From Pristiophorus japonicus (taxonomy: Eukaryota): 64,000 nucleotides of DNA. The DNA is taken from the NCBI RefSeq assembly GCF_044704955.1, contig NC_091987.1, positions 97,588,001 to 97,652,000 of the forward strand, in the 5' to 3' direction. Both the position numbers and the translations under genes were made by a program. A model generated the notes under the pieces. It was not told the DNA's origin, made no database searches, and saw only the letters and a list, made by a program, of their open reading frames with translations. This document shows positions 19,911 through 44,200 of this stretch, in pieces (positions within the stretch are counted from its first letter, which is position 1; each line of letters opens with the position of its first letter).

Positions 19911-20810
19911 AGTAATACGATATTTGATTTATACAATACATAAATGCTTTCAAATCAAAAAAAAATGGCACTTCCTGTCCTTCATTTTCTGTTTTTTCTG
20001 ACTGAGTCCCTGATGGATGCTACACAGGACGACTTTAATGGAGTCCTTCATGGTCATGGTATAGGCAGAATGAAGCAGCAAAGTGAAAGTGATGATATTG
20101 AAAGTGATATTGGGTGCCCTTTCTTTGAAGTAAAAGATCCTCAGTTTGTTTTTGACATGTGTTCGCCATTGAACTTGCATCATGTTCAGTTCTCATATTC
20201 ATCAATGCTTCAAAATAATGTACAACCTCAACTCCTCTTAGAACAAAGCTCCTTTGATGGTTCAGCTATTGTAAACTAGTAAAGAAAGCAGTTTTGGCAG
20301 TTAACAAACATGCAAGTTCCAAACAATATTCAGTACTCAAAAGGGTTAATCTGTACTGTTTCATTTCAGCGATGCGTGCCAGTGGCAAAACACTTGCTTT
20401 GGGTATATTTTTATATTGCAGTTCAATGCTGTTGCAACTAGTTTACTAATGTATGATTGATTGGAGCTTGAGGCTACATATAAATACCCATACCGACCTC
20501 TGCCTTGCAGAGGTTGAACGCCAACTCTGACACCTCGTCCTACCTCCCACAGGACCATGACCCCATTACTGAAGATCAAGCCATCATTTCCAAGACTGTC
20601 ATTGACCTCATCTCCTCTGGAGATCTTTCTTCCACAGCCACCAACCTCATAGCCCCCCAACCCCACAGCCTGCTTCTACCTCCTTCCCAAGATCCACAAA
20701 CAGGACTATCCTGGTAGACCCATTGCTTCAGCCTGTTCTTGCTCCACGGAACATATCTCTTCCTGTCTCGACTCTTTTTTCTCCCCTTGCCCAGTCCCTT
20801 CCCACCTACA

Positions 20811-21337
20811 GGAAAAAGAGTGGGAGCGCAATAGTGATAGGGGATTCAATGGTGAGGGGAATAGATAGACGTTTCTGCGGCCGCAACCGAGACTCCAGGA
20901 TGGTATGTTGCCTCCCTGGTGCAAGGGTCAAGGATATCTCGGAGCGGGTGCAGGACATTCTGAAATGGGAGGGAGAACAGCCAGTTGTCGTGGTGCACAT
21001 TGGTACCAATGACATAGGTAAAAAAAAAAGGGATGAGGTCCTACGAAACGAATTTAAGGAGCTAGGAGCTAAATTAAAAAGTAGGACCTCAAAAGTAGTA
21101 ATCTCGGGATTGCTAAAAGTGCCACGTGCTAGTCAGAGTAGGAATCGCAGGATAGCTCAGATGAATACGTGGCTTGAGCAGTGGTGCAGCAGGGAGGGAT
21201 TCAAATTCCTGGGGCATTGGAACCGGTTCTGGGGGAGGTGGGACCAGTACAAACCAGACGGTCTGCACCTGGGCAGGACCGGAACCAATGTCCTAGGGGG
21301 AGTGTTTGCTAGTGCTGTTGGGGAGGATTTAAACTAA
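20811..21337 (+). pseudogene. CR1 ORF1 C-terminal SGNH/GDSL esterase domain
   Basis: VIGDSMVRG, HIGTND and DGLHL blocks of SGNH hydrolases; ends EDLN-TAA. Confidence 0.9.
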
Positions 21338-24319
21338 TATGGCAGGGGGATGGGAACCAATGCAGGGAGACAGAGGGAGACAAAAAGGAGGCAAAAGCAA
21401 AAGACAGAAAGGAGATGAGGAAAAGTGGAGGGCAGAGAAACCCAAGGCAAAGAACAAAAAGGGCCACTGTACAGCAAAATTCTAAAAGGACAAAGGGTGT
21501 TAAAAAAACAAGCCTGGAGGCTTTGTGTCTTAATGCAAGGAGTATCCGCAATAAGGTGGATGAATTAACTGTGCAAATAGATGTTAACAAATATGATGTG
21601 ATTGGGATTACGGGGACGTGGCTCCAGGATGATCAGGGCTGGGAACTCAACATCCAGGGGTATTCAACATTCAGGAAGGATAGAATAAAAGGAAAAGGAG
21701 ATGGGGTAGCATTGCTGGTTAAAGAGGAGATTAATGCAATAGTTAGGAAAGACATCAGCTTGGATGATGTGGAATCTATATGGGTAGAGCTGCAGAACAC
21801 CAAAGGGCAAAAAACCTTAGTGGGAGTTGTGTACAGACCTCCAAACAGTAGTAGTGATGTTGGGGAGGGCATCAAACAGGAAATTAGGGGTGCATGCAAT
21901 AAAGATGCAGCAGTTATAATGGGTGACTTTAATATGCATATAGATTGGGCTAACCAAACTGGAAGCAATACGGTGGAGGACGATTTCCTGGAGTGCATAA
22001 GGGATGGTTTTCTAGACCAATATGTCGAGGAACCAACTAGGGGGGAGGCCATCTTAGACTGGGTGTTGTGTAATGAGAGAGGATTAATTAGCAATCTCAT
22101 TGTGCGAGGCCCCTTGGGGAAGACTGACCATAATATGGTGGAATTCTGCACTAGGATGGAGAATGAAACAGTTAATTCAGAGACCATGGTCCAGAACTTA
22201 AAGAAGGGTAACTTTGAAGGTATGAGGCGTGAATTGGCTAGGATAGATTGGCGAATGATACTTAAGGGGTTGACTGTGGATGGGCAATGGCAGACATTTA
22301 GAGACCGCATGGATGAATTACAACAATTGTACATTCCTGTCTGGCGTAAAAATAAAAAAGGGAAGGTGGCTCAACCGTGGCTATCAAGGGAAATCGGGGA
22401 TAGCATTAAAGCCAAGGAAATGGCATACAAATTGGCCAGAAATAGCAGCAAACCCAGGGACTGGGAGAAATTTAGAACTCAGCAGAGGAGGACAAAGGGT
22501 TTGATTAGGGCAGGGAAAATGGAGTACGAGAAGAAGCTTGCAGGGAACATTAAGGCGGATTGCAAAAGTTTCTATAGATATGTAAAGAGAAAAAGGTTAG
22601 TAAAGACAAACGTAGGTCCCCTGCAGTCAGAATCAGGGGAAGTCATAACGGGGAACAAAGAAATGGCAGACCAATTGAACAAGTACTTTAGTTCGGTATT
22701 CACTAAGGAGGACACAAACAACCTTCCAGATATAAAAGTGGTCAGAGGGTCTAGTAAGGAGGAGGAACTGAGGGAAATCTTTATTAGTCAGGAAATTGTG
22801 TTGGGGAAATTGATGGGATTGAAGGCCGATAAATCCCCAGGGCCTGATGGACTGCATCCCAGAGTACTTAAGGAGGTGGCCTTGGAAATAGCGGATGCAT
22901 TGACAGTCATTTTCCAACATTCCATTGACTCTGGATCAGTTCCTATCGAGTGGAGGGTAGCCAATGTAACCCCACTTTTTAAAAAAAGGAGGGAGAGAGA
23001 AAACAGGGAATTATAGACCGGTCAGCCTGACCTCAGTAGTGGGTAAAATGATGGAATCAATTATTAAGGATGTCATAGCAGCGCATTTGGAAAATGGTGA
23101 CATGATGGGTCCAAGTCAGCATGGATTTGTGAAAGGGAAATCATGCTTGACAAATCTTCTGGAATTTTTTGAGGATGTTTCCAGTAAAGTGGACAAAGGA
23201 GAACCAGTTGATGTGGTATATTTGGACTTTCAGAAGGCTTTCGACAAGGTCCCACACAAGAGATTAATGTGCAAAGTTAAAGCACATGGGATTGGGGGTA
23301 GTGTGCTGACGTGGATTGAGAACTGGTTGTCAGACAGGAAGCAAAGAGTAGGAGTAAATGGGTACTTTTCAGAATGGCAGGCAGTGACTAGTGGGGTACC
23401 GCAAGGTTCTGTGCTGGGGCCCCAGCTGTTTACATTGTACATTAATGATTTAGACGAGGGGATTAAATGTAGTATCTCCAAATTTGCAGATGACACTAAG
23501 TTGGGTGGCAGTGTGAGCTGCGAGGAGGATGCTATGAGGCTGCAGAGTGACTTGGATAGGTTAGGTAAGTGGGCAAATGAATGGCAGATGAAGTATAATG
23601 TGGATAAATGTGAGGTTATCCACTTTGGTGGTAAAAACAGAGAGACAGACTATTATCTGAATGGTGACAGATTAGGAAAAGGGAAGGTGCAACGAGACCT
23701 GGGTGTCATGGTACATCAGTCATTGAAGGTTGGCATGCAGGTACAGCAGGCGGTTAAGAAAGCAAATGGCATGTTGGCCTTCACAGCGAGGGGATTTGAG
23801 TACAGGGGCAGGGAGGTGTTGCTACAGTTGTACAGGGCCTTGGCGAGGCCACACCTGGAGTATTGTGTACAGTTTTGGTCTCCTAACTTGAGGAAGGACA
23901 TTCTTGCTATTGAGGGAGTGCAGTGAAGATTCACCAGACTGATTCCCGGGATGGTGGGACTGACCTATCAAGAAAGACTGGATCAACTGGGCTTGTATTC
24001 ACTGGAGTTCAGAAGAATGAGAGGGGACCTCATAGAAACGTATAAAATTCTGACGGGGTTAGACAGGTTAGATGCAGGAAGAATGTTCCCAATGTTGGGG
24101 AAGTCCAGAACCAGGGGTCATAGTCTGAGGATAAGAGGTAAGCCATTTAGGACCGAGATGAGGAGAAACTTCTTCACCCAGAGAGTGGTGAACCTGTGGA
24201 ATTCTCTACCACAGAAAGTAGTTGAGGCCAATTCACTAAATATATTCAAAAGGGAGTTAGATGAAGTCCTTACTACTCGGGGGATCAAGGGGTATGGCGA
24301 GAAAGCAGGAAGGGGGTAG
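21328..24319 (+). pseudogene. CR1 ORF2 (APE endonuclease + RT), about 2 lesions
   Basis: LNARSI, GVVYRPP, MGDFN and (T)DHN endonuclease motifs; RT LDFQKAFD and FADD. Frameshift near 22985 and stop at 23924-23926. Confidence 0.93.
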
Positions 24320-25954
24320 GCTAGAAGGGCTGAATGGCCTGCTCCTGCACCTATTTTCTATGGTTCTATGATTCTATGTTTCTACATCCACGACTCTTCC
24401 GATGCTCTCTGCCACCAGTTTCCAGTTTCCTGGCCCCAACCGTCTCCTTTTCACTATGGACGTCCAATCTCTCGACACTTCCATCCCCCACAGGATGGCC
24501 TCAGGGAGCTCCACTTCTTCCTTGAACAGTGGCCCAGCCAGTCCACATTCCCCACCACGTCCCTCCCTCCAGCTGGCTGAACTAGTTCTCACACTGAACA
24601 ACTTCTCCTTTGACTCCACTCACTTCCTCTAAATTAAAGGTTGGGATTAGGAACCAGCATGGGTGCTAGCTATGCCTGCTTTTTCGTGGCATATGTGGTA
24701 TATTCTTTGTTCCAGCCCTACTCAGGACCTCTCCCTCACCTCTTTTTCCATTGCATTAATGACAATATCGGTGCCGTTTCCTGCTCTCATCCTGAACTCA
24801 AAAATTTCATTCATTTTGCTTCCAATTTCCACCTTTCCCTCACCTTCACATTGTCCATCTTCGACTTCCCAGAAATCGAGGCAGAGGATAAGCTATTGAC
24901 AAACATTCACTATAAGCTTACTGAATCCCACAGCTTCCTGGACTGCACTTCCTCCCACCCAGCTTCCAGTAAGGACTCTATTCCATTATTCCAGTTTCTC
25001 CCTCATCTGTTCTGATGCCACCTTCCATTCTAGTGCTTCCGATAATCTTCCCTTTTTCCTCAACCAAGGATTCTCCTCTACTGTGGTTGACATGGCCCTC
25101 GACTATGTCTGCTCCATTTCCCACACTTCTGCTCTCACCCCTACCTCTCCCACAAGCACAATAGGGTTCTCTTTATCCTCACCTTTCACCCCACTAGCCT
25201 CCACGTTCAACGGATCATCCTCCACCACCTCCAGCGTGATCCCACCACCAAACACACCTTCCCTTCTCAGCATTCCGAAGGGGTTGCTCCCTCCGCAACA
25301 TCTTGGTCCACTCTCACCCCCAGCACCCCCTCCCCTTCCCACAGCACCTTTCCTGCAAGCGCAGGAGATGCAACAACTGCCCTTTTACCTCCTCCCTTCC
25401 CACTGTCCAGGGCCTCAAATACTCCTTCCAGGTGAAATAGCGATTTACTTGTACTTCTTCCAATTTAGTATACTGTATTCACTGCTCACGATGTGATCTC
25501 CTCTACATTGGGGAGCCCAAATGCAGATTGGGTGGGCACTTTGCAGAACACCTCCATTCAATCCCTAAGCGTAACCCCGAGCCTCCAGTTGCCGGTCACT
25601 TTAATTCTCCGCTCCACTCAGATCTTTTCATTCTCGGCCTCGTATACGGTTCCAACGAAGCTCAAGGAACAGCACCTCATCTTTCAGTTAGGCACTTTAC
25701 TGCCTTCTTGATTCAACATTGAGTTCAATAATTTCAGGCCATAACCTCTGTCCGTATTTTTTTGCCCCCCCCCCCCCATGGCAGCTGATCATGATTCTGC
25801 CATTGCCATTTACACCTCATCTAGACTTAACTTTTGTTTCTTAACTTGCCCCATTACCATCTACTTTTGGCTCCTAATCCCTTCTGCCATCCATCATATC
25901 AAAGACCTTCCCTTTTGTTCTTTCCTTCCCAACCCCCTTTCCCTACACTTGCTT

Positions 25955-32337: not shown

Positions 32338-35300
32338 AGAGTTAAACACGTGGCTCAAAGATTGGTGTGGGAGAAGTGGGTTTTGGTTCGTGGGACACTG
32401 GCACCAGTCAACATAATCATCATCATCATCCAGTCCCTCAAAATCGAGGAAGACTTGCTTCCACTCTGAGTTCTTAGGTGACTGAACAGTCCAATACAGG
32501 AATTACAATCGCTGTCACAGATGGGACAGACAGTCGGTGAAGGCAAGGGTGGGTGGGAAGACTGGTTTGCCGCACGCTCCTTCCGCTGCCTGCGCTTGAT
32601 TTCTGCATGCTCTCGGCGACGAGACTCAAGGTGTTCAGCGCCCTCCCGGATGCTCTTCCTCCACTTAGGGCGGGCTTTGGCCAGGGACTCCCAGGTGTTG
32701 GTGGGGATGTTGCATTTTATCAAGGAGGCTTTGAGGGTGTCCTTGAAACATTTCCTCTGCCCACCTGGGGCTCGCTTGCCATGTAGGAGTTCCGAGAAGA
32801 GCGCTTGCTTTGGGAGTCTTGTGTCAGGCATGCGGACAATGTGGTCTGACCAACGGAGCTGGTCAAGTGTGGTCAGTGCTTCTATGCTGGGGGTGTTGTC
32901 CTGATCGAGGACGCCAACGTTGGTGTGTCTGTCCTCCCAGGGGATTTGCAGGATCTTGCGGAGACATCGTTGGTGGTATTTCTCCAGCGATTTGAGGTGT
33001 CTACTTATATATGGTCCACGTCTCTGAGCCATACAGGAGGACGGGTATTACTTCAGCCGTGTAGACCATGAGCTTGTTACCAGATTTGAGAGCCTGATCT
33101 TCGAACACTCTCTTCCTCAGGCAGCCAAAGGCTGCGCTGGTGCACTGGAGGCGGTGTCAAACCTCATCGTTGACATTTGCCCTTGCTGATAATAGGCTCC
33201 TGAGGTATGGAAAGTGGTCCACATTATCCAGGGCCACACCGTGGATCTTGATGACTGGGGGGGGGGGGGGGGGGGGGGGCAGTGCTGTGTCGAGGGGGGG
33301 GGGGGGTCAGATTGGTGGAGGACCTTTGTCTTACGGATCAGTACTGGGGTAAGAGGGAGCTGTTCCGTTCGGACAGGCTCCACTTAGACCGTGCTGGGAC
33401 TAGGGTCCCTCAAATCAAATAACTAGGGCTGTAGAGAGGGCTTTAAACGAATTAGTGGGGGGGGGGGGGGGCGGGGGGGAGGGAGAATTCAGTGAGCGAA
33501 AATTTAAGTAGTCAAATAACAAGGAGAAGGCAATAGATCAGGGTAGCACTGGGAGAAATGAAAACCAGAGCGTGCCAGAATATACAAACATAAAGGTGAA
33601 TCAGAAAGTAGAGTCAAAGCAGAAAAAAAGAGTAAATTTTTTTTTAAAAAAGCTCTTTATCTGAATGCACGCAGCATTCGTAACAAAATAGATGAGTTGA
33701 CGTCACAAATAGATACAAATGGGTATGATCTGATAGTCATTACAGAGACGTGGTTGCAAAGTGACTAGGACTGGGAACTAAATATTGTGGAGTACTTGAC
33801 AATTCAATGATAGTCAGAAAGGAAAAGAAGGTGGGGTAGCTAATGGATGAGATCAGTGCATTAGTGAGAAACGATATTGGCTCAGAGGATCAAGATGCTG
33901 AATCAGTTTGGGTGGCGATAAGGAATAATAAGGGGAAAAAGTTGCTGGTGAGTGTAGCCTATAGGCTCCCTAACAGTAGTTACACTGTAGGGCGGAGTAT
34001 AAATCAAGAAATAATGGAGGCTTGTAATAAAGGAACGGCAATAATAACCTTCATATTGATTGGACAAAGCAAATGGGCCAGTGTAGCCTTGAGGGAGAGT
34101 TCATAGAGTGTATCCAGGACAGTTTCCTTGAATAGTAAGTTGCAGAACCAACCAGGGAGCAGGCTATCTTAGATCTGATACTGTGTAATGAGACAGGATT
34201 AATAAATAACCTCGTAGTGAAGGATCCTCTAGGAATGAGTGGCCATAACATGGTTGAATTTCAAATTCAGTTGGAGGGTGAGAAAGTTGGATCTCAAACC
34301 AGCATCCTAAGCTTAAAAAAAAGGAGACTACAAAGGTATGAAGGCAGAGTTGGCGAAAGTGGACTAGGAATATAGATTAAAGAGGGAACAGTTGATGAAC
34401 AGGGGCAAACATTTAAGGAGATATTTCATAACTCGCAACAAAAATATATCCCAATGAGAAGGAATGATTGTAAGAGAAGGGATAACCATCCGTGGCTAAC
34501 TAGGGAAATAAGGGATGGCATCAAATTGAAAACAAGGGCATACAATATGGCCAAGACTAATGGGAGGCCAGAGGATTGGGAAACTTTTAAAGGCCTGCAA
34601 AGAACAACTAAAAAAAAATGATAAAGGAGAGGGAAGATAGATTGTGAAAGTAAACTAGCACAAAATATAAAAACAGATAGTAAGAGTTTCTACAGGTACA
34701 AAAAAGAAAAAAAGAGTGGCTAAAATAAATGTTGGTCTCTTGGAGGATGAGATTGGGGAATTAATAATACAGAACAGGGAAATGACAGAGACGTTGAACA
34801 AATATTTTGTATTGGTCTTCACGGTAGAAGACACTAAAAACATCCCAATAGTGGATAATCAAGGCTCTATAGGGACAATCACTGTCACTAATGAAGTAGT
34901 ACTCAGTAAAATAATGGGACTAAAGGTGGACAAATCCCCTGGACCTGATGGCTTACATCCTCGGGTCTTAAAAGAAGTGGCTGCAGAGATAGTGGATGCA
35001 TTGGTTGCAATCTATCAAAATTCCATGGATTCTGGGGCGGTCCCTGCGGATTGGAAAACCGCAAATGTAACGCCCCTATTTAAAACAGGAGGCAGACAAA
35101 AAGCAGGAAACTATAGACCAGTTAGCCTAACATCTGTCATTGCAAAAATGCTGAAGTCCATTATTAAGGAAGCAGTAGCGGAACATTTGGAAAAGCATAT
35201 TTCAATCAAGCAGTGTCAGCATGGTTCTATGAAAGGGAAATCGTGTTTGACAAATTTTCTGGAGTTTTTTGAGGATGTAACAAGCAGAGTGGATAAGGGG

Positions 35301-39130: not shown

Positions 39131-39567
39131 ACTTGAGGTTATTTAGCGCCTTTATATAGCAACCATCGAATGTCCCAAAACGTATTACAGACAATGAAGT
39201 ACTTTTTGAAGTGTAGTCACTGTTGTAATGTAGGAAACGCTTTAGCCAATTAGTGCACAGCAAGCTCCCACAAACAGCAATGTGATAATGACCAGATAAT
39301 CTGTTTTTTTATGTCATGTTGATTGAGGGATAAATATTGGCCAGGACATCAGGAATAATTCCCCCGCTCTTCTTCTAATTAGAGCCATGGGATCTTTTAT
39401 GTCCACTTGAGAGAGCAGACAGGGCCTCAGTTTAACGTCTCATCCAAAAGATGGCACCTCCGACAGTGTAGCGCTCCCTTAGCACTGCACTGGAGTGTCG
39501 GCCGAGATTTTTGTTCTCAAGAGTGGGACTTGAACCCACAGCGTTTTGACTCAGAGTTGAGAGTGTT
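39131..39567 (-). mobile_element. Deu-domain tRNA SINE whose head is split by the full-length CR1 (remainder at 44287-44310)
   Basis: Reverse complement of the 36474 SINE; ...GACTCAGAGTTGAGAGTG continues as TACCCACTGAACCACAGCAGACAC after the CR1 tail. Confidence 0.82.
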
Positions 39568-40085
39568 GTCGAGGAGGCGGAGCGGGGAGATCGAGGCGTC
39601 CTACAAAAGGCCCAGGAGTCGGGAGGCTCGGGAGTTCGAGTGTCATCGAGGAGGCAGAGCGGGGAGATCGAGGCGGCCCACAAAAGGCCCAGGAATCGGG
39701 AGGCTCGAGCAGGCGGAGCAGGGAGATCGTGGTGGCCTACAAAAGGCCCAGAAGTTGGGAGGCTCAGGAGTTCGAGTGTCGTCGAGGAGGCAGAGTGGAG
39801 AGATCGAGGTGGCCTACAAAAGGCCCAGGTGTCGGGAGGCTCGGGAGTTCGAGTGTTGTCGAGGAGGCGGAGCGGGGAGATCGAGGCGGCCTACTAAAAG
39901 CCCAGGTGTCGGGAGGCTCAGGAGTTCGAATGTCATCGAGGGGGCGGAGCAGGGACATCGAGGCAGCCTACAAAAGGCCCAGGAGTCGGGAGGCTCGGGA
40001 GTTCGAGTGTCGTTGAGGGGGCGGAGCAGGGAGATCGAGGCAGCCTACAAAAGGCCCAGGAGTCGGGAGTTTGAGTGTCGTCGAG
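39561..40085 (+). repeat. 77-bp tandem monomer array (7 cores) at the CR1 5' end
   Basis: Unit starts at 39561, 39638, 39774, 39851, 39928 and 40005 (one junction is internally deleted); core GGCCTACAAAAGGCCCAGG. Confidence 0.92.
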
Positions 40086-40268
40086 CAGGTCAGCCGGTGC
40101 AGCTGCAGCAGGGTGGCAAAAAGAAGTAGAAAGAAATAGAAAGGTGACGTCACAGACAAGGGGTAAGTGATTGGCTGGTGATTGGTGAGTAGTTTTTTGT
40201 TTTCTTTTCTATATCAGTAAGTAACATTTAGCCTTGTTGCCAATTTAAGTTAATCTAAGGGTTAAGAC

Positions 40269-41215
40269 ATGGCATGAGAGCTCGGACACGTGTTATGCTC
40301 CTCCTGTGCTATGTGGGAAGTCAGGGATGGTTCTGGTGTCCCTGACAACTATGTTTGCGGGAAGTGCATCCGCCTCCAGCTCCTGATGGACCGCATTGCG
40401 ACACTGGAGATGCGGGTGGATTCACTCTGAAGCATGCACGATTCTGAGAATGACGTGAATAGCACGTTTAGCGAGTTGGTTTCACCGCAGGTAAAAGGTA
40501 CACAGCCAGATAGTAAATGGGTGACCAGCAGGAAGAGCAGTGCAAGGAAGGTAGGGCAGGGGTCCCCTGCAGTCATCCCCCTGCAAAACAGATACACCGC
40601 TTTGGGTACTGTTGAGGGGATGACTCATCAGGGGAGGGCAGCAGAAGCCAAGTTCATGGCACCGTGGGTGGCTCTGCTGCAAAGGAGGGCAGGAAAAAGA
40701 GTGGGAGAGCTATAGTGATAGGGGATTCGATTGTAAGGGGAATAGATAGGCGTTTCTGCGGCCGCAACCAATACTCCAGGATGGTATGTTGCCTCCCTGG
40801 TGCAAGGGTCAAGGATGTCTTGGAGTGGGTGCAGGGCATTCTGAAAAGGGAGGGTGAACAGCCAGTTGTCGTGGTGCACATAGGTACCAACGATATAGGT
40901 AAAAAACGGGATGAGGTCCTACAAGACGAATTTGGGGAGCTAGGAGCTAAATTAAAAAGTAGGACCTCAAAAGTAGTAATCTCAGGATTGCTATCAGTGC
41001 CACGTGCTAGTCAGAGTAAGAATCGCAGGATAGCACAGATGAATACGTGGCTTGAGGAGTGGTGCAAAAGGGAGGGATTCAAATTCCTGGGACATTGGAA
41101 CCGGTTCTGGAGGAGGTGGGACCAGTACAAACCAGACGGTCTGTACCTGGGCAGGACCGGAACCAATGTCTAAAGGGGAGCGTTTGCTAGTGCTGTTGGG
41201 GAGGAGTTAAACTAA
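40269..41215 (+). pseudogene. CR1 ORF1 (zinc finger, coiled coil, SGNH esterase), disrupted
   Basis: ATG at 40269; CSSC-x16-CGKC; LQLLMDRIATLEMRVDSL heptads; VIGDSIVRG and HIGTND; in-frame stops. Confidence 0.9.
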
Positions 41216-44200
41216 CATGGCAGGGGGATGGGAACCTATGCAGGAGATAGAGGGAAATAAAATGGAGGCAGAAGCAAAAGATAGAAAGGAGAATAGTAAA
41301 AGTGGAAGGCAGAGAAACCCAAGGCAAAAAACAAAAAGGGCCACATTACAGCAAAATTCTAAATGGGGCAAAGTGTGTGAGAAAGAAAAGCCTGAAGGCT
41401 CTGTGCCTCAATGCGAGGAGTATTCGGAATAAGGTGGACAAATTAACTGCGCAGACAGCAGTTAACGGAAATGATGTAATTGGCATCACAGAGACATGGC
41501 TCCAGGGTGACCAAGGCTGGGAACTCAACATCCAGGGGTATTCAACATTTAGGAAGGATAGGCAGAGAGGAAAAGGAGGCGGGGTGGTGTTGCTGGTTAT
41601 AGAGGAAATTAATGCAATAGTAAGGAGGGACATTTGCTTGGATGATGTGGAATTGGTATGGGTGGAGCTGCGGAATACCAAAGGGCAGAAAACGCTAGTG
41701 GGAGTTGTGTACAGACCACCAAACAGTAGTAGTGAGATTGGGGACAACATCAAACAAGAAATAAGGGATGTGTTCAATAAAACTACAGCAGTTATCATGG
41801 GTGACTTTAATCTACATATTGATTGGGCTAACCAAACCAGTAGTAATGCGGTAGAGGAGGATTTCCTGGAGTGTATTAGGGATGGTTTTCTCAACCAATA
41901 TGTCGAGGAACTAACGAGAGCTGGCCATCCTTGACTGGGTGATGTATAATGAGAAGGGACTAATTAGCAATCTTGTTGTGCAAGGCTCCTTGGGGAAGAG
42001 TGACCATAATATGGTAGAATTCTTTATTAAAAAGTAGAGTGACACAGTTAATTCGGAAACTAGGGTCCTGAACTTAAGGAAAGGTAACTTCGACGGTATG
42101 AGGCGTGAATTGGCTAGAATAGACTGGTGAATGATACTTAAAGGGTTGACGGTGGATAAGCAATGGCAAACATTTAAAGATCACATGGATGAACTTCAGC
42201 AATTGTACATCCCTGTCTGGAGTAAAAATAAAATGGGGAAGATAGCTCAATCGTAGCTAACAAGAGAAATTAAGGATAGTGTTAAAACCAAGGAAGAGGT
42301 ACATAAATTGGCTAGAACAGTAACAAATCTGAGGACTGGGAGAAATTTAGAATTCAACAGAGGAGGACTTAGGGTTTAATTAAGAGGGGGAAAATAAAGT
42401 ACGAGAGGAAGCTTGCAGGGAACATAAAAACTGACTGCAAAAGCTTCTATAAATATGTGAAGGGAAAAAGATTAATGAAGACAAATGTAGGTCCCTTGCA
42501 GTCGGATTCAGGTGAATTTATAATGGGGAACAAAGAAATGGCAGACCAATTGAACAAATACTTCGGTTCTGTCTTCACGAAGGAAGACACAAATAACCTT
42601 CCGAATGTTTTAGGGGACAGTGGGTCTAGTGAGAAGGAGGAACTGAAGGATATCCTTATTAGGCGGGAAATTGTGTTAGGGAAATTGATGGGATTGAAGG
42701 CTGATAAATCCCCGGGGCCTGATAGTCTGCATCTTAGAGTACTTAAGGAAGTGGCCCTAGAAATAGTGGATGCATTGGTGATCATTTTCCAACAGTCTAT
42801 CGACTCTGGATCAGTTTCTATGGACTGGAGGGTAGCTAATGTAACACCACTTTATAAAAAAGGAGGGAGAGAGAAAACGGGTAATTATAGACCGGTTAGC
42901 CTGACATCAGTAGTGGGGAAAATGTTGGAATCGATCATGAAGGATGAAATAGCAGTGCATTTGGAAAGCATTGACAGGATCGGTCCAAGTCAGCATGGAT
43001 TTATGAAAGGGAAATCATGTTTGATGACTCTTCTGGAATTTTTTGAGGATGTAACTAGCATAGTGGACAAGGGAGAACCAGTGGATGTGGTGTATTTGGT
43101 CTTTCAAAAGGCTTTTGACAAGGTCCTGCACAAGAGATTGGTGTGCAAAGTTAAAGCGCATTGTATTGGGGGCAATGTACTGACGTGGATAGAGAACTGG
43201 TTGGCAGACAGGAAACAGAGTCGGGATAAACGGGTCCTTTTCAGAATGGCAGGCAGTGACTAGTGGAGTGCCGCAGGGCTCAGTGCTGGGACCCCAACTC
43301 TTTACAATATACATTAACGATTTGGATGAAGGAATTGAGTGTAATATCTCCAAGTTTGCAGATGATACTAAACTGTGTGGCGGTATGAGCTGTGAGGGAG
43401 ATGCTAAGAGGCTGCAGGGTGACTTGGACAGGTCAGGTGAGTGGGCAAATGCATGGCAGATGCAGTATAATGTGGATAAATGTGAGGTTATTCATTTTGG
43501 GGGCAAAAACACAAAAGCAGAATATTATCTAAATGGCGGCAGATTAGGAAAAGGGGAGGTGCAACAAGACCTGGGTGTCATGGTTCATCAGTCATTGAAG
43601 GTTGGCATGCAGGTACAACAGGCGGTGAAGAAGGCAAATGGCATGTTGGCCTTCATAGCGAGACGTTTTGAGTATGGAAGCAGGGAGGTCTTACTGCAGT
43701 TGTACAGGTCCTTGGTGAGGCCACACCTTGAATATTGTGTACAGTTTTGGTCTCCTAATCTGAGGAAGGACGTTCTTGCTATTGAGGGAGTGCAGCGAAG
43801 GTTCACCAGACTAATTCCAGGGATGGCTGGACTGTCATATGAGGAGAGACTGGATCAACTGGGTGTTTATTCACTGGCGTTTAGAAGGATGAGAGGGGAT
43901 CTCATAGAAACGTATAAGATTCTGACGGGACTGGATAGATTAGATGCGGGAAGAATGTTCCCGATGTTGGGGAAGTCCAGAACCAGGGGACAGAGTCTTA
44001 GGATAAGGGGTAGGCCATTTAGGACTGAGATGCGGAGAAACTTCTTCACTCAGAGAGTTGTTAACCTGTAGAATTTCCTGCCGCAGAGAGTTGTTGATGC
44101 CAGTTCATTGGATATATTCAAGAGGGAGTTAGATATGGCCCTTGTGGCTAAGGGGATCAAGGGGTATGGAGAGAAAGCAGGAAAGGGGTACTGAGGGAAT

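Follow-up and report, generated by a model that had tools for sequence, protein, structure and literature searches.

A candidate programmed -1 ribosomal frameshift at the ORF1/ORF2 junction of esterase-type CR1 retrotransposons

The stretch of Pristiophorus japonicus DNA considered here (64,000 nucleotides (nt) of contig NC_091987.1, positions 97,588,001 to 97,652,000, hereafter the window, to whose forward strand all coordinates refer) is rich in fragments of CR1 long interspersed nuclear elements (LINEs), as recognized from repeat families and from homologues of the first open reading frame (ORF1) in cartilaginous fish, named hosts being Stegostoma, Mustelus, Leucoraja, Narcine, Mobula and Chiloscyllium. 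At the junction between ORF1 and ORF2 of these elements, which the window contains in three copies (A, B and C), translation probably passes from one frame to the other by programmed -1 ribosomal frameshifting. The case is built on a slippery heptamer, its phase, an open -1 frame and the conservation of synonymous sites across vertebrate CR1s. With an ORF2 that the -1 frame leaves open, a heptamer kept at synonymous sites and distant ORF1 ends exchanged for ones fitting other slippery heptamers, frameshifting is the best explanation of the junction; the proposal, made in an earlier note on this DNA, is thus supported by comparative tests (synonymous constraint and end swaps), with the trans-frame product being predicted only.

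The junction in the window

Copy A (20809..24385, recognized by blastn, from the list of open reading frames and from its sequence) is a 5'-truncated and inactive CR1 LINE, whose ORF1 remnant (20810..21337) carries an SGNH/GDSL esterase domain (PF13472, E=7.6e-14) and ends in Asp-Leu-Asn-stop. The earlier note had described this end as GAT TTA AAC TAA with the stop at 21335-21337, and translation confirms it. The predicted shift site, T_TTA_AAC at 21328..21334, indeed stands in the X_XXY_YYZ phase. After the TAG at 21310-21312, the -1 frame stays open into ORF2, running from 21313 through the endonuclease to 23016. The TAA (21335..21337) lies directly 3' of the heptamer and gives Leu in the -1 frame, in which ORF2 (21328..23016) consists of a basic linker (21328-21519) and, from about 21520, an apurinic/apyrimidinic (AP) endonuclease (PF03372, E=5.8e-12). 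As regards codon use in copy A, TTA represents 9 of 53 Leu codons (17%) and AAC 17 of 35 Asn codons (49%). Further downstream, ORF2 is broken by a frameshift in an A run near 22981-22987 and by a stop at 23924-23926; copy A is a dead copy, and the question therefore concerns the family and not the copy.

The 10-mer formed by heptamer and stop occurs once in the window against 0.24 expected, a count reached in 22 of 100 shuffles, and since this single match is within chance, its significance comes only from the relatives. A linker of copy A composition would stay open over 29 codons with a chance of 29% and over 61 codons with a chance of 8%. The earlier claim that the motif recurs at both other junctions holds in part. 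Copy B, a member of the same family (85.8% identity to copy A over 3511 nt by blastn) whose ORF1 starts at ATG 40269, reads G_TTA_AAC_TAA at 41206..41215, with a non-canonical first triplet, whereas copy C, which is degenerate and belongs to a different, RALN-type family (66% identical to copy A over ORF2), keeps the heptamer but has lost the stop, reading T_TTA_AAC and then GAA at 33442..33451, followed by a long G run. At all three junctions, representing two families, the endonuclease starts in the -1 frame relative to Leu-Asn; the linker of copy B contains two 1-nt indels, a private deletion and an insertion, which cancel out, and that of copy C is interrupted by stops.

Variation within the family of copy A was read from contigs of four sequencing runs (X1, X7, X9 and X13) placed on 21150-21620 at 80% likeness, the depths being summed contig depths and not copy numbers. 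By this measure, G at 21328 makes up 65% of the depth in X1, 95% in X7 and 0.1% in X13, and is also found in the single contig of X9, while G at 21327 makes up 30%, 12% and 43% in X1, X7 and X13, respectively. The family is accordingly translated mostly as Glu-Leu-Asn (G_UUA_AAC) or Gly-Leu-Asn (U_UUA_AAC), and the Asp-Leu-Asn form of copy A is likely a minority in it. With most of the depth having G at 21328, the exact U_UUA_AAC cannot be called typical of this family, as had been assumed; however, the main deviation, G_UUA_AAC, is the site at which equine arteritis virus (EAV) naturally shifts (PMC3835772, Table 1; PMC5009743; all papers given by PMC number are cited from excerpts) and was hence counted in favour of frameshifting. 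Among the top 40 of the 161 variation rows there is no variant at 21329-21337, and many fall at upstream third positions of ORF1. The indels of these contigs all lie at 21377-21392 (8 rows) and reach 2% or more only in X13, at low depth, with no linker indel reaching 2% in X1; linker indels are rare, so the frame of copy A can be taken as that of the family.

Conservation of the heptamer and of ORF1 ends across the CR1 lineage

Supplementary Table 2 of PMC13343379, whose rows labelled LINE/CR1 include matches to the ORF1 end of copy A, comprises about 1000 CR1-group consensuses, of which the first 400 nt per row were examined. Only 5'-truncated rows expose the junction within that span, and matches were classified by eye. 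TTTAAACTA was found at 23 places, 17 of which are ORF1/ORF2 junctions, the six others being misses, and TTTAAACTGA at three places, one of which is a junction; since the consensuses have dropped bases, these counts describe a sequence motif and not a reading frame. The 18 rows with T_TTA_AAC and a stop at the junction are AldAff, AllMis (2), AmiCal and AquCat, labels that read as a teleost, alligator, bowfin and bullfrog; CalMil, CroPor (3), HypSab and LatCha, which read as elephant shark, crocodile, stingray and coelacanth; and PogVit, PriPec, ScyCan (2) and SquAca (3), which read as bearded dragon, sawfish, catshark and dogfish. In these rows the codon before Leu varies (GCT, GGT, GAT, TAT, TGT) and its third base is always T. 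In contrast, none of the 73 places with a synonymous Leu codon (five others) or Asn codon (AAT) plus a TA-stop is at a junction, and neither is any of the 10 places with G, A or C instead of T as first base. A search free of the heptamer returned seven rows, with the heptamer in all five whole junctions, one further row beginning inside it and one being cut before it. The heptamer is thus retained at the ORF1 stop across CR1 consensuses, and synonymous change, which the earlier note had named as the sign of a mere Leu-Asn requirement, is not free. One of the junction rows, AldAff_Crack-2 (supplement row 12), is a teleost element labelled Crack with a CR1-like esterase end T_TTA_AAC_TAG and no following G-run, and may be misclassified.

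These counts bear directly on the view that Leu-Asn is simply the conserved C-terminus of the esterase, its codons being inherited without any recoding signal. The terminal Asn is kept in LN, GN, KN, SN and EN ends alike, the rows are related and the clade ending in LN is one lineage, all of which such a protein constraint or common descent would produce. Nevertheless, 18 T_TTA_AAC junctions stand against 0 of 73 synonymous ones from sharks to crocodiles, while ORF1 identity falls to about 35%, and the codon before Leu keeps a fixed third base although its amino acid varies. This explanation was graded as already largely refuted and is the least probable of those considered.

At the protein level, 150 ORF1 representatives at 50% clustering were considered, 85 of which have the DGxH..G motif; the 67 that end 22-32 residues after it were counted. 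A C-terminal tripeptide compatible with a slippery heptamer is present in 46 of these 67, whereas the seven offsets upstream of it give 1-7 of 67 and the background is 3.6%, and the compatible ends include LN (34), GN (10) and KN (2). Before LN, the preceding residue calls for an NNY codon in 11 cases and for an NNR codon in one (in the Glu-Leu-Asn family of copies A and B), whereas before GN or KN it needs NNY in no case and NNR in eight, mostly Gln (CAG GGA AAC), a difference with a Fisher p of 7e-5 that is overstated because the rows are not independent. This covariation is what U_UUA_AAC and G_GGA_AAC, respectively, require, and for the residues one or two places earlier the LN proteins show the reverse pattern (NNY vs NNR 3 vs 11 and 2 vs 10). 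LN ends are swapped for QGN and SKN, which fit G_GGA_AAC and A_AAA_AAC. In an ORF1 tree from which the tail was left out (94 rows; excluded were six rows whose tails are aberrant and rows with fewer than 120 residues before the motif or fewer than 22 from the motif to the end), one clade ends in LN in 44 of 44 rows, its named hosts being sharks and rays, turtles, lizards, an eel and a sturgeon. In the other large clade, GN needs at least five changes and KN at least three, and proteins running on past the end often have KN, FL, FF or GF there. The turtle ORF1 P0075 also runs past the usual end and has S-F-K-L-G at the equivalent place, the residues that these bases encode in the -1 frame.

The same material allows a second alternative to be weighed, in which the heptamer is kept for a non-translational role of the RNA, be it in splicing, in forming the 3' end or in binding a protein during retrotransposition, while ORF2 would come from a processed transcript or be made in some other way. 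Heptamer and downstream G-runs are conserved as nucleotides, and the shark model P0193 seems to splice a +1-frame AUG to ORF2, although it is a gene-predictor model. However, the ORF1 stop at consensus junctions may be TAA, TAG or TGA, so that there is no fixed splice AG; distant relatives switch to ends fitting other slippery heptamers and not to a common RNA motif; and the phase relative to the ORF1 codons is always X_XXY_YYZ. An RNA role is therefore considered very improbable, if marginally less so than a protein constraint. As regards the reach of frameshifting itself, it may be ancestral to the whole esterase-CR1 lineage, from sharks to reptiles and including deeper relatives, with swaps among U_UUA_AAC, G_UUA_AAC, G_GGA_AAC, A_AAA_AAC and U_UUU_UUA and with the adjacent stop and the G-rich tract as stimulator; this joint claim is advanced only tentatively, its chances being placed slightly below even.

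AUG codons, downstream structure and the proposed mechanism

Several points weigh against frameshifting at this junction. The event is predicted from sequence, and the consensus counts are limited in the way stated above. Among the 67 ORF1 proteins, 21 end without a compatible tripeptide, some of them carrying one 1-15 residues earlier, and a five-row DGLHP clade lacks any compatible end. The G at the first position of the heptamer weakens P-site re-pairing. For efficient slippage, a -1 site as a rule depends on a structure 6-9 nt downstream (PMC3835772), and neither a strong 3' stem-loop nor a G-quadruplex is predicted in copies A and B, pseudoknots not having been searched. Finally, possible starts for ORF2 exist: codon 21385 is an in-frame AUG in copy B, P0191, P0192 and two loose ends of X1, its context being strong wherever DNA could be read, copy A itself has an in-frame ATG at 21415, and TAATG occurs in the -1 frame in the shark consensuses ScyCan_CR1-1a, SquAca_CR1-17a and SquAca_CR1-6c. 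The linker is thus not free of AUG codons.

These starts are the basis of the strongest rival, termination-reinitiation, in which ribosomes would restart at an overlapping UAAUG, at a linker AUG (21385 or 21415) or, as has been discussed for L1, independently of AUG, ORF2p would be a separate protein and the conserved heptamer sequence would act as a termination or reinitiation signal. Reinitiation is a usual model for LINEs, as in the UAAUG coupling of SART1 (PMC3894237, PMC3708506), the other being the unconventional ORF2 initiation of L1 (PMC5009743). TAATG is present in three of eight TAA junctions (six consensus rows plus copies A and B), and is impossible with TAG or TGA; the AUG at codon 21385 is shared by several subfamilies. 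On the other hand, an overlapping UAAUG is not conserved, as copy A has TAATA and copy B TAACA, and the codon overlapping the stop is free at the other junctions (ATA, ACA, AGC, GTT, GTG, GGT, GAT, GAA, AGT). The AUG positions differ between subfamilies, and copy C has no in-frame AUG: copy A has AAG at 21385..21387, where the sister subfamilies have ATG (41262 in copy B), and its own first in-frame ATG (21415..21417) is AAT in copy B and hence not conserved. At least one linker AUG would be expected from composition alone with a chance of 53%. The -1-frame peptide is identical to P0191 in 12 of 15 residues upstream of codon 21385 and in 5 of the 15 residues from there on. Most importantly for the comparison, reinitiation predicts neither the conservation of X_XXY_YYZ nor swaps fitting G_GGA_AAC and A_AAA_AAC. 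It is thus judged unlikely as the general explanation, albeit clearly less so than the other two alternatives, and it may contribute in some families while leaving the heptamer unexplained.

Two further starts were examined and set aside. The AUG just behind the ORF1 stop (21339 in copy A, 41217 in copy B) is in the +1 frame and falls short of the endonuclease, with no common rescuing indel in X1, and in the overlap between the TAG at 21310 and the heptamer there is no upstream AUG. The former codon, 1 nt after the stop (21339-21341, 41217-41219), opens a +1-frame peptide MAGGWEPMQ..., and the annotated shark protein P0193 starts at the +1-frame AUG and joins ORF2, a model that is probably an artefact of gene prediction.

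Downstream of the heptamer, a G-rich segment on the forward strand (21341..21363, with G5-AT-G3 at 21345-21354) is a candidate stimulator, predicted from folding, G4Hunter, ViennaRNA and the G-runs of relatives. In copy A, a hairpin of -8.1 kcal/mol at 21342-21363 starts 7 nt after the heptamer (z -3.1), and in copy B a hairpin also lies 7 nt downstream (z -1.6), whereas RNA folding gives no hairpin after the heptamer of copy C. The G-tracts after a short spacer that had been pointed out earlier are present at 21345-49, 21352-54, 21365-67 and 21375-77, but the four-tract G-quadruplex suggested with them was rejected, since ViennaRNA with G-quadruplexes switched on predicts none in copy A or B, the third tract of copy B being GG. 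G4Hunter peaks at 1.4 (A) and 1.2 (B), values exceeded elsewhere in the same elements. Judged by eye, a G-rich run lies within about 10 nt of the stop in the 18 junction rows except AldAff and SquAca_CR1-17a, one CroPor row being cut off just where the run starts. Just after the heptamer of copy C comes a run of about 26 nt that is almost purely G (33457-33482), which is predicted to fold as a G-quadruplex and looks like a private expansion; similar G runs are found at 33257-33307 in the neighbouring element. Natural stimulation of frameshifting by a G-quadruplex was described in 2016 as "not currently known but anticipated" (PMC5009743).

According to the mechanism proposed for the -1 frameshift, a ribosome whose P site holds UUA and whose A site holds AAC would pause, owing to the stop codon that comes next and to the G-rich tract at the entry channel and not to a pseudoknot. 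The P-site tRNA-Leu and the A-site tRNA-Asn would then slip in tandem to UUU (or GUU) and AAA, and translation would resume at CUA. A minority of ribosomes would in this way produce the fusion of ORF1 and ORF2, while most would stop and release ORF1p. The rate of shifting would set the ratio of ORF1p to ORF2p in the manner of Gag and Gag-Pol. The predicted fusion would be a zinc finger-esterase-endonuclease-reverse transcriptase (RT) protein, a composition already put forward in the earlier note, of which esterase, endonuclease and RT are found in copy A; copy A lacks the zinc finger, the Cys-rich N-terminus occurring only in copy B. Judged from ORF lengths, the fusion would have a mass of roughly 145-150 kDa. 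Across the junction, the peptide is predicted as E-D-L-N-L-I-W-Q-G-D-G-N in copy A, and as …EDLNLIWQGDGN or …EELNL… in the forms of the family.

Relation to known systems and other features of the elements

How LINEs translate ORF2 has been described as an open question (PMC3894237, PMC3708506). The closest parallel is offered by TRE5-A and TRE3-A of Dictyostelium, likewise LINEs with an AP-endonuclease and RT in ORF2, which are said in a figure legend to need a -1 frameshift for ORF2 (PMC5911963); they belong, however, to another clade and host and have another ORF1, and the comparison is one of stated requirement and not of shift site. With the ORF1a/1b junction of nidoviruses, the CR1 family of copy A shares the same two heptamers, U_UUA_AAC and G_UUA_AAC, UUUAAAC being the shift site of four other arteriviruses (PMC3835772, Table 1). 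Arterivirus sites, though, have a pseudoknot 4-7 nt downstream with stems of 21-49 kcal/mol (PMC3835772), in contrast to the weak hairpin and short G-rich tract of CR1. As in retroviral and other long terminal repeat (LTR) gag-pol, an abundant ribonucleoprotein or structural ORF1 product and a rare fused polymerase would be kept in a ratio set by frameshifting, which amounts to 5-10% in avian leukosis virus (PMC11835228). Unlike gag-pol, CR1 is a non-LTR element in which no protease was seen, so that the esterase would stay attached to the endonuclease-RT in the predicted fusion. SART1 and L1 face the same problem as CR1, namely the translation of the second of two ORFs from one LINE RNA, and TAATG is found in three shark CR1 consensuses; they differ in that CR1 has no conserved AUG and has a conserved in-phase slippery heptamer. 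Elsewhere, a +1 shift has been suggested for Paramecium elements (PMC5405496), and Zorro3 needs its ORF2 ATG (PMC1965478).

The excerpts available contain no frameshift proposal for CR1. The word "frameshift" is absent from those of PMC3894237, PMC3708506, PMC3905857 and PMC2881922, the last of which also yielded no passage on ORF2 translation, and from the text of PMC13343379 and its examined supplement; in the examined part of PMC11835228 it is used only for retroviruses. The passages of the recoding review PMC5009743 mention no CR1 case, those of the amniote CR1 supplement PMC4316615 gave only 3'-end matches, and those of PMC5006619 and PMC11303007 added nothing. More broadly, no such proposal was found in full-text searches, which mostly do not cover subscription papers. 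The 1997 descriptions of chicken and turtle CR1 and comments in Repbase may, reportedly, already mention frameshifting. What would be new here is the known -1 mechanism in a LINE clade for which no report was found, its stimulator being atypical or absent.

Among retrotransposons, the CR1 group predominates in most vertebrates, and in sharks and rays it accounts for 22-34% of the genome (PMC13343379). If frameshifting takes place as proposed, the dominant vertebrate LINE makes a Gag-Pol-like esterase-endonuclease-RT fusion, CR1 ORF2p being a fusion that carries the esterase, a domain that is lipid-binding in the related ZfL2-1 (PMC3905857). It would also account for annotators finding no fixed ORF2 start and would indicate a natural frameshift stimulator other than a pseudoknot. 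The conserved shift site is a precise prediction that can be tested cheaply.

As to the elements themselves, copies A and B are, on their domain content, esterase-type CR1 LINEs, with an SGNH ORF1 and an ORF2 of AP-endonuclease and RT. PF13472 is matched in ORF1 of both copies, and the ORF2 matches in Pfam are PF03372, PF14529 and PF00078; the RT of copy A (22970-23926, forward strand, PF00078, E=2.6e-35) continues after the frameshift mutation. Copy A begins inside ORF1 at the esterase domain and so lacks the Cys-rich N-terminus, which copy B has from ATG 40269 on.

Other ORF1-like proteins deserve mention. P0084, P0092 and P0102 have SSN, VSN or LEN at their ends, where shift sites of a non-canonical kind could lie. 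P0204, a 1421-aa psyllid model in which one chain carries an SGNH esterase together with endonuclease and RT, is either a single-ORF fusion or an artefact, and was set aside as evidence of fusion, being a gene model without DNA context. Esterase pieces of CR1 ORF1 are also found in host gene models (P0032, P0033, P0045 and P0087), including ray TMEM204 and ABHD14A isoforms and a 980-aa protein ending in RRALN, which are possibly exonizations or annotation artefacts. P0006, a shark-type CR1 ORF1 with 69% identity, has been deposited under the name of an SGNH/GDSL hydrolase from Pseudomonas aeruginosa, on a contig of 4.2 kb, and is likely host contamination; similarly, a LINE-like esterase piece without a junction (L003:152-526), on a 531-nt contig of a Gammaproteobacteria metagenome-assembled genome, is probably eukaryotic contamination. 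A single metagenome scan for relatives gave two bacterial loci, a scan of prokaryote genomes gave the L003 contig as its one match, plasmids and phages gave no match, the sole match in viral contigs (L004) was a chance one in a phage tail region, and the sequences of the distant alignment A4 had diverged too far to be used in searching for loci.

At its 3' end, copy A has a microsatellite of TTCTATG-type repeats (24356-24385) instead of poly(A), a kind of tail that characterizes CR1. The blastn alignments to all copies reaching that far break at 24318, a stretch near the 3' end being missing in copy A. At the opposite end of the element, the 5' untranslated region of copy B, upstream of ATG 40269, is formed at 39550-40090 by units of about 77 nt repeated in tandem (family D9).

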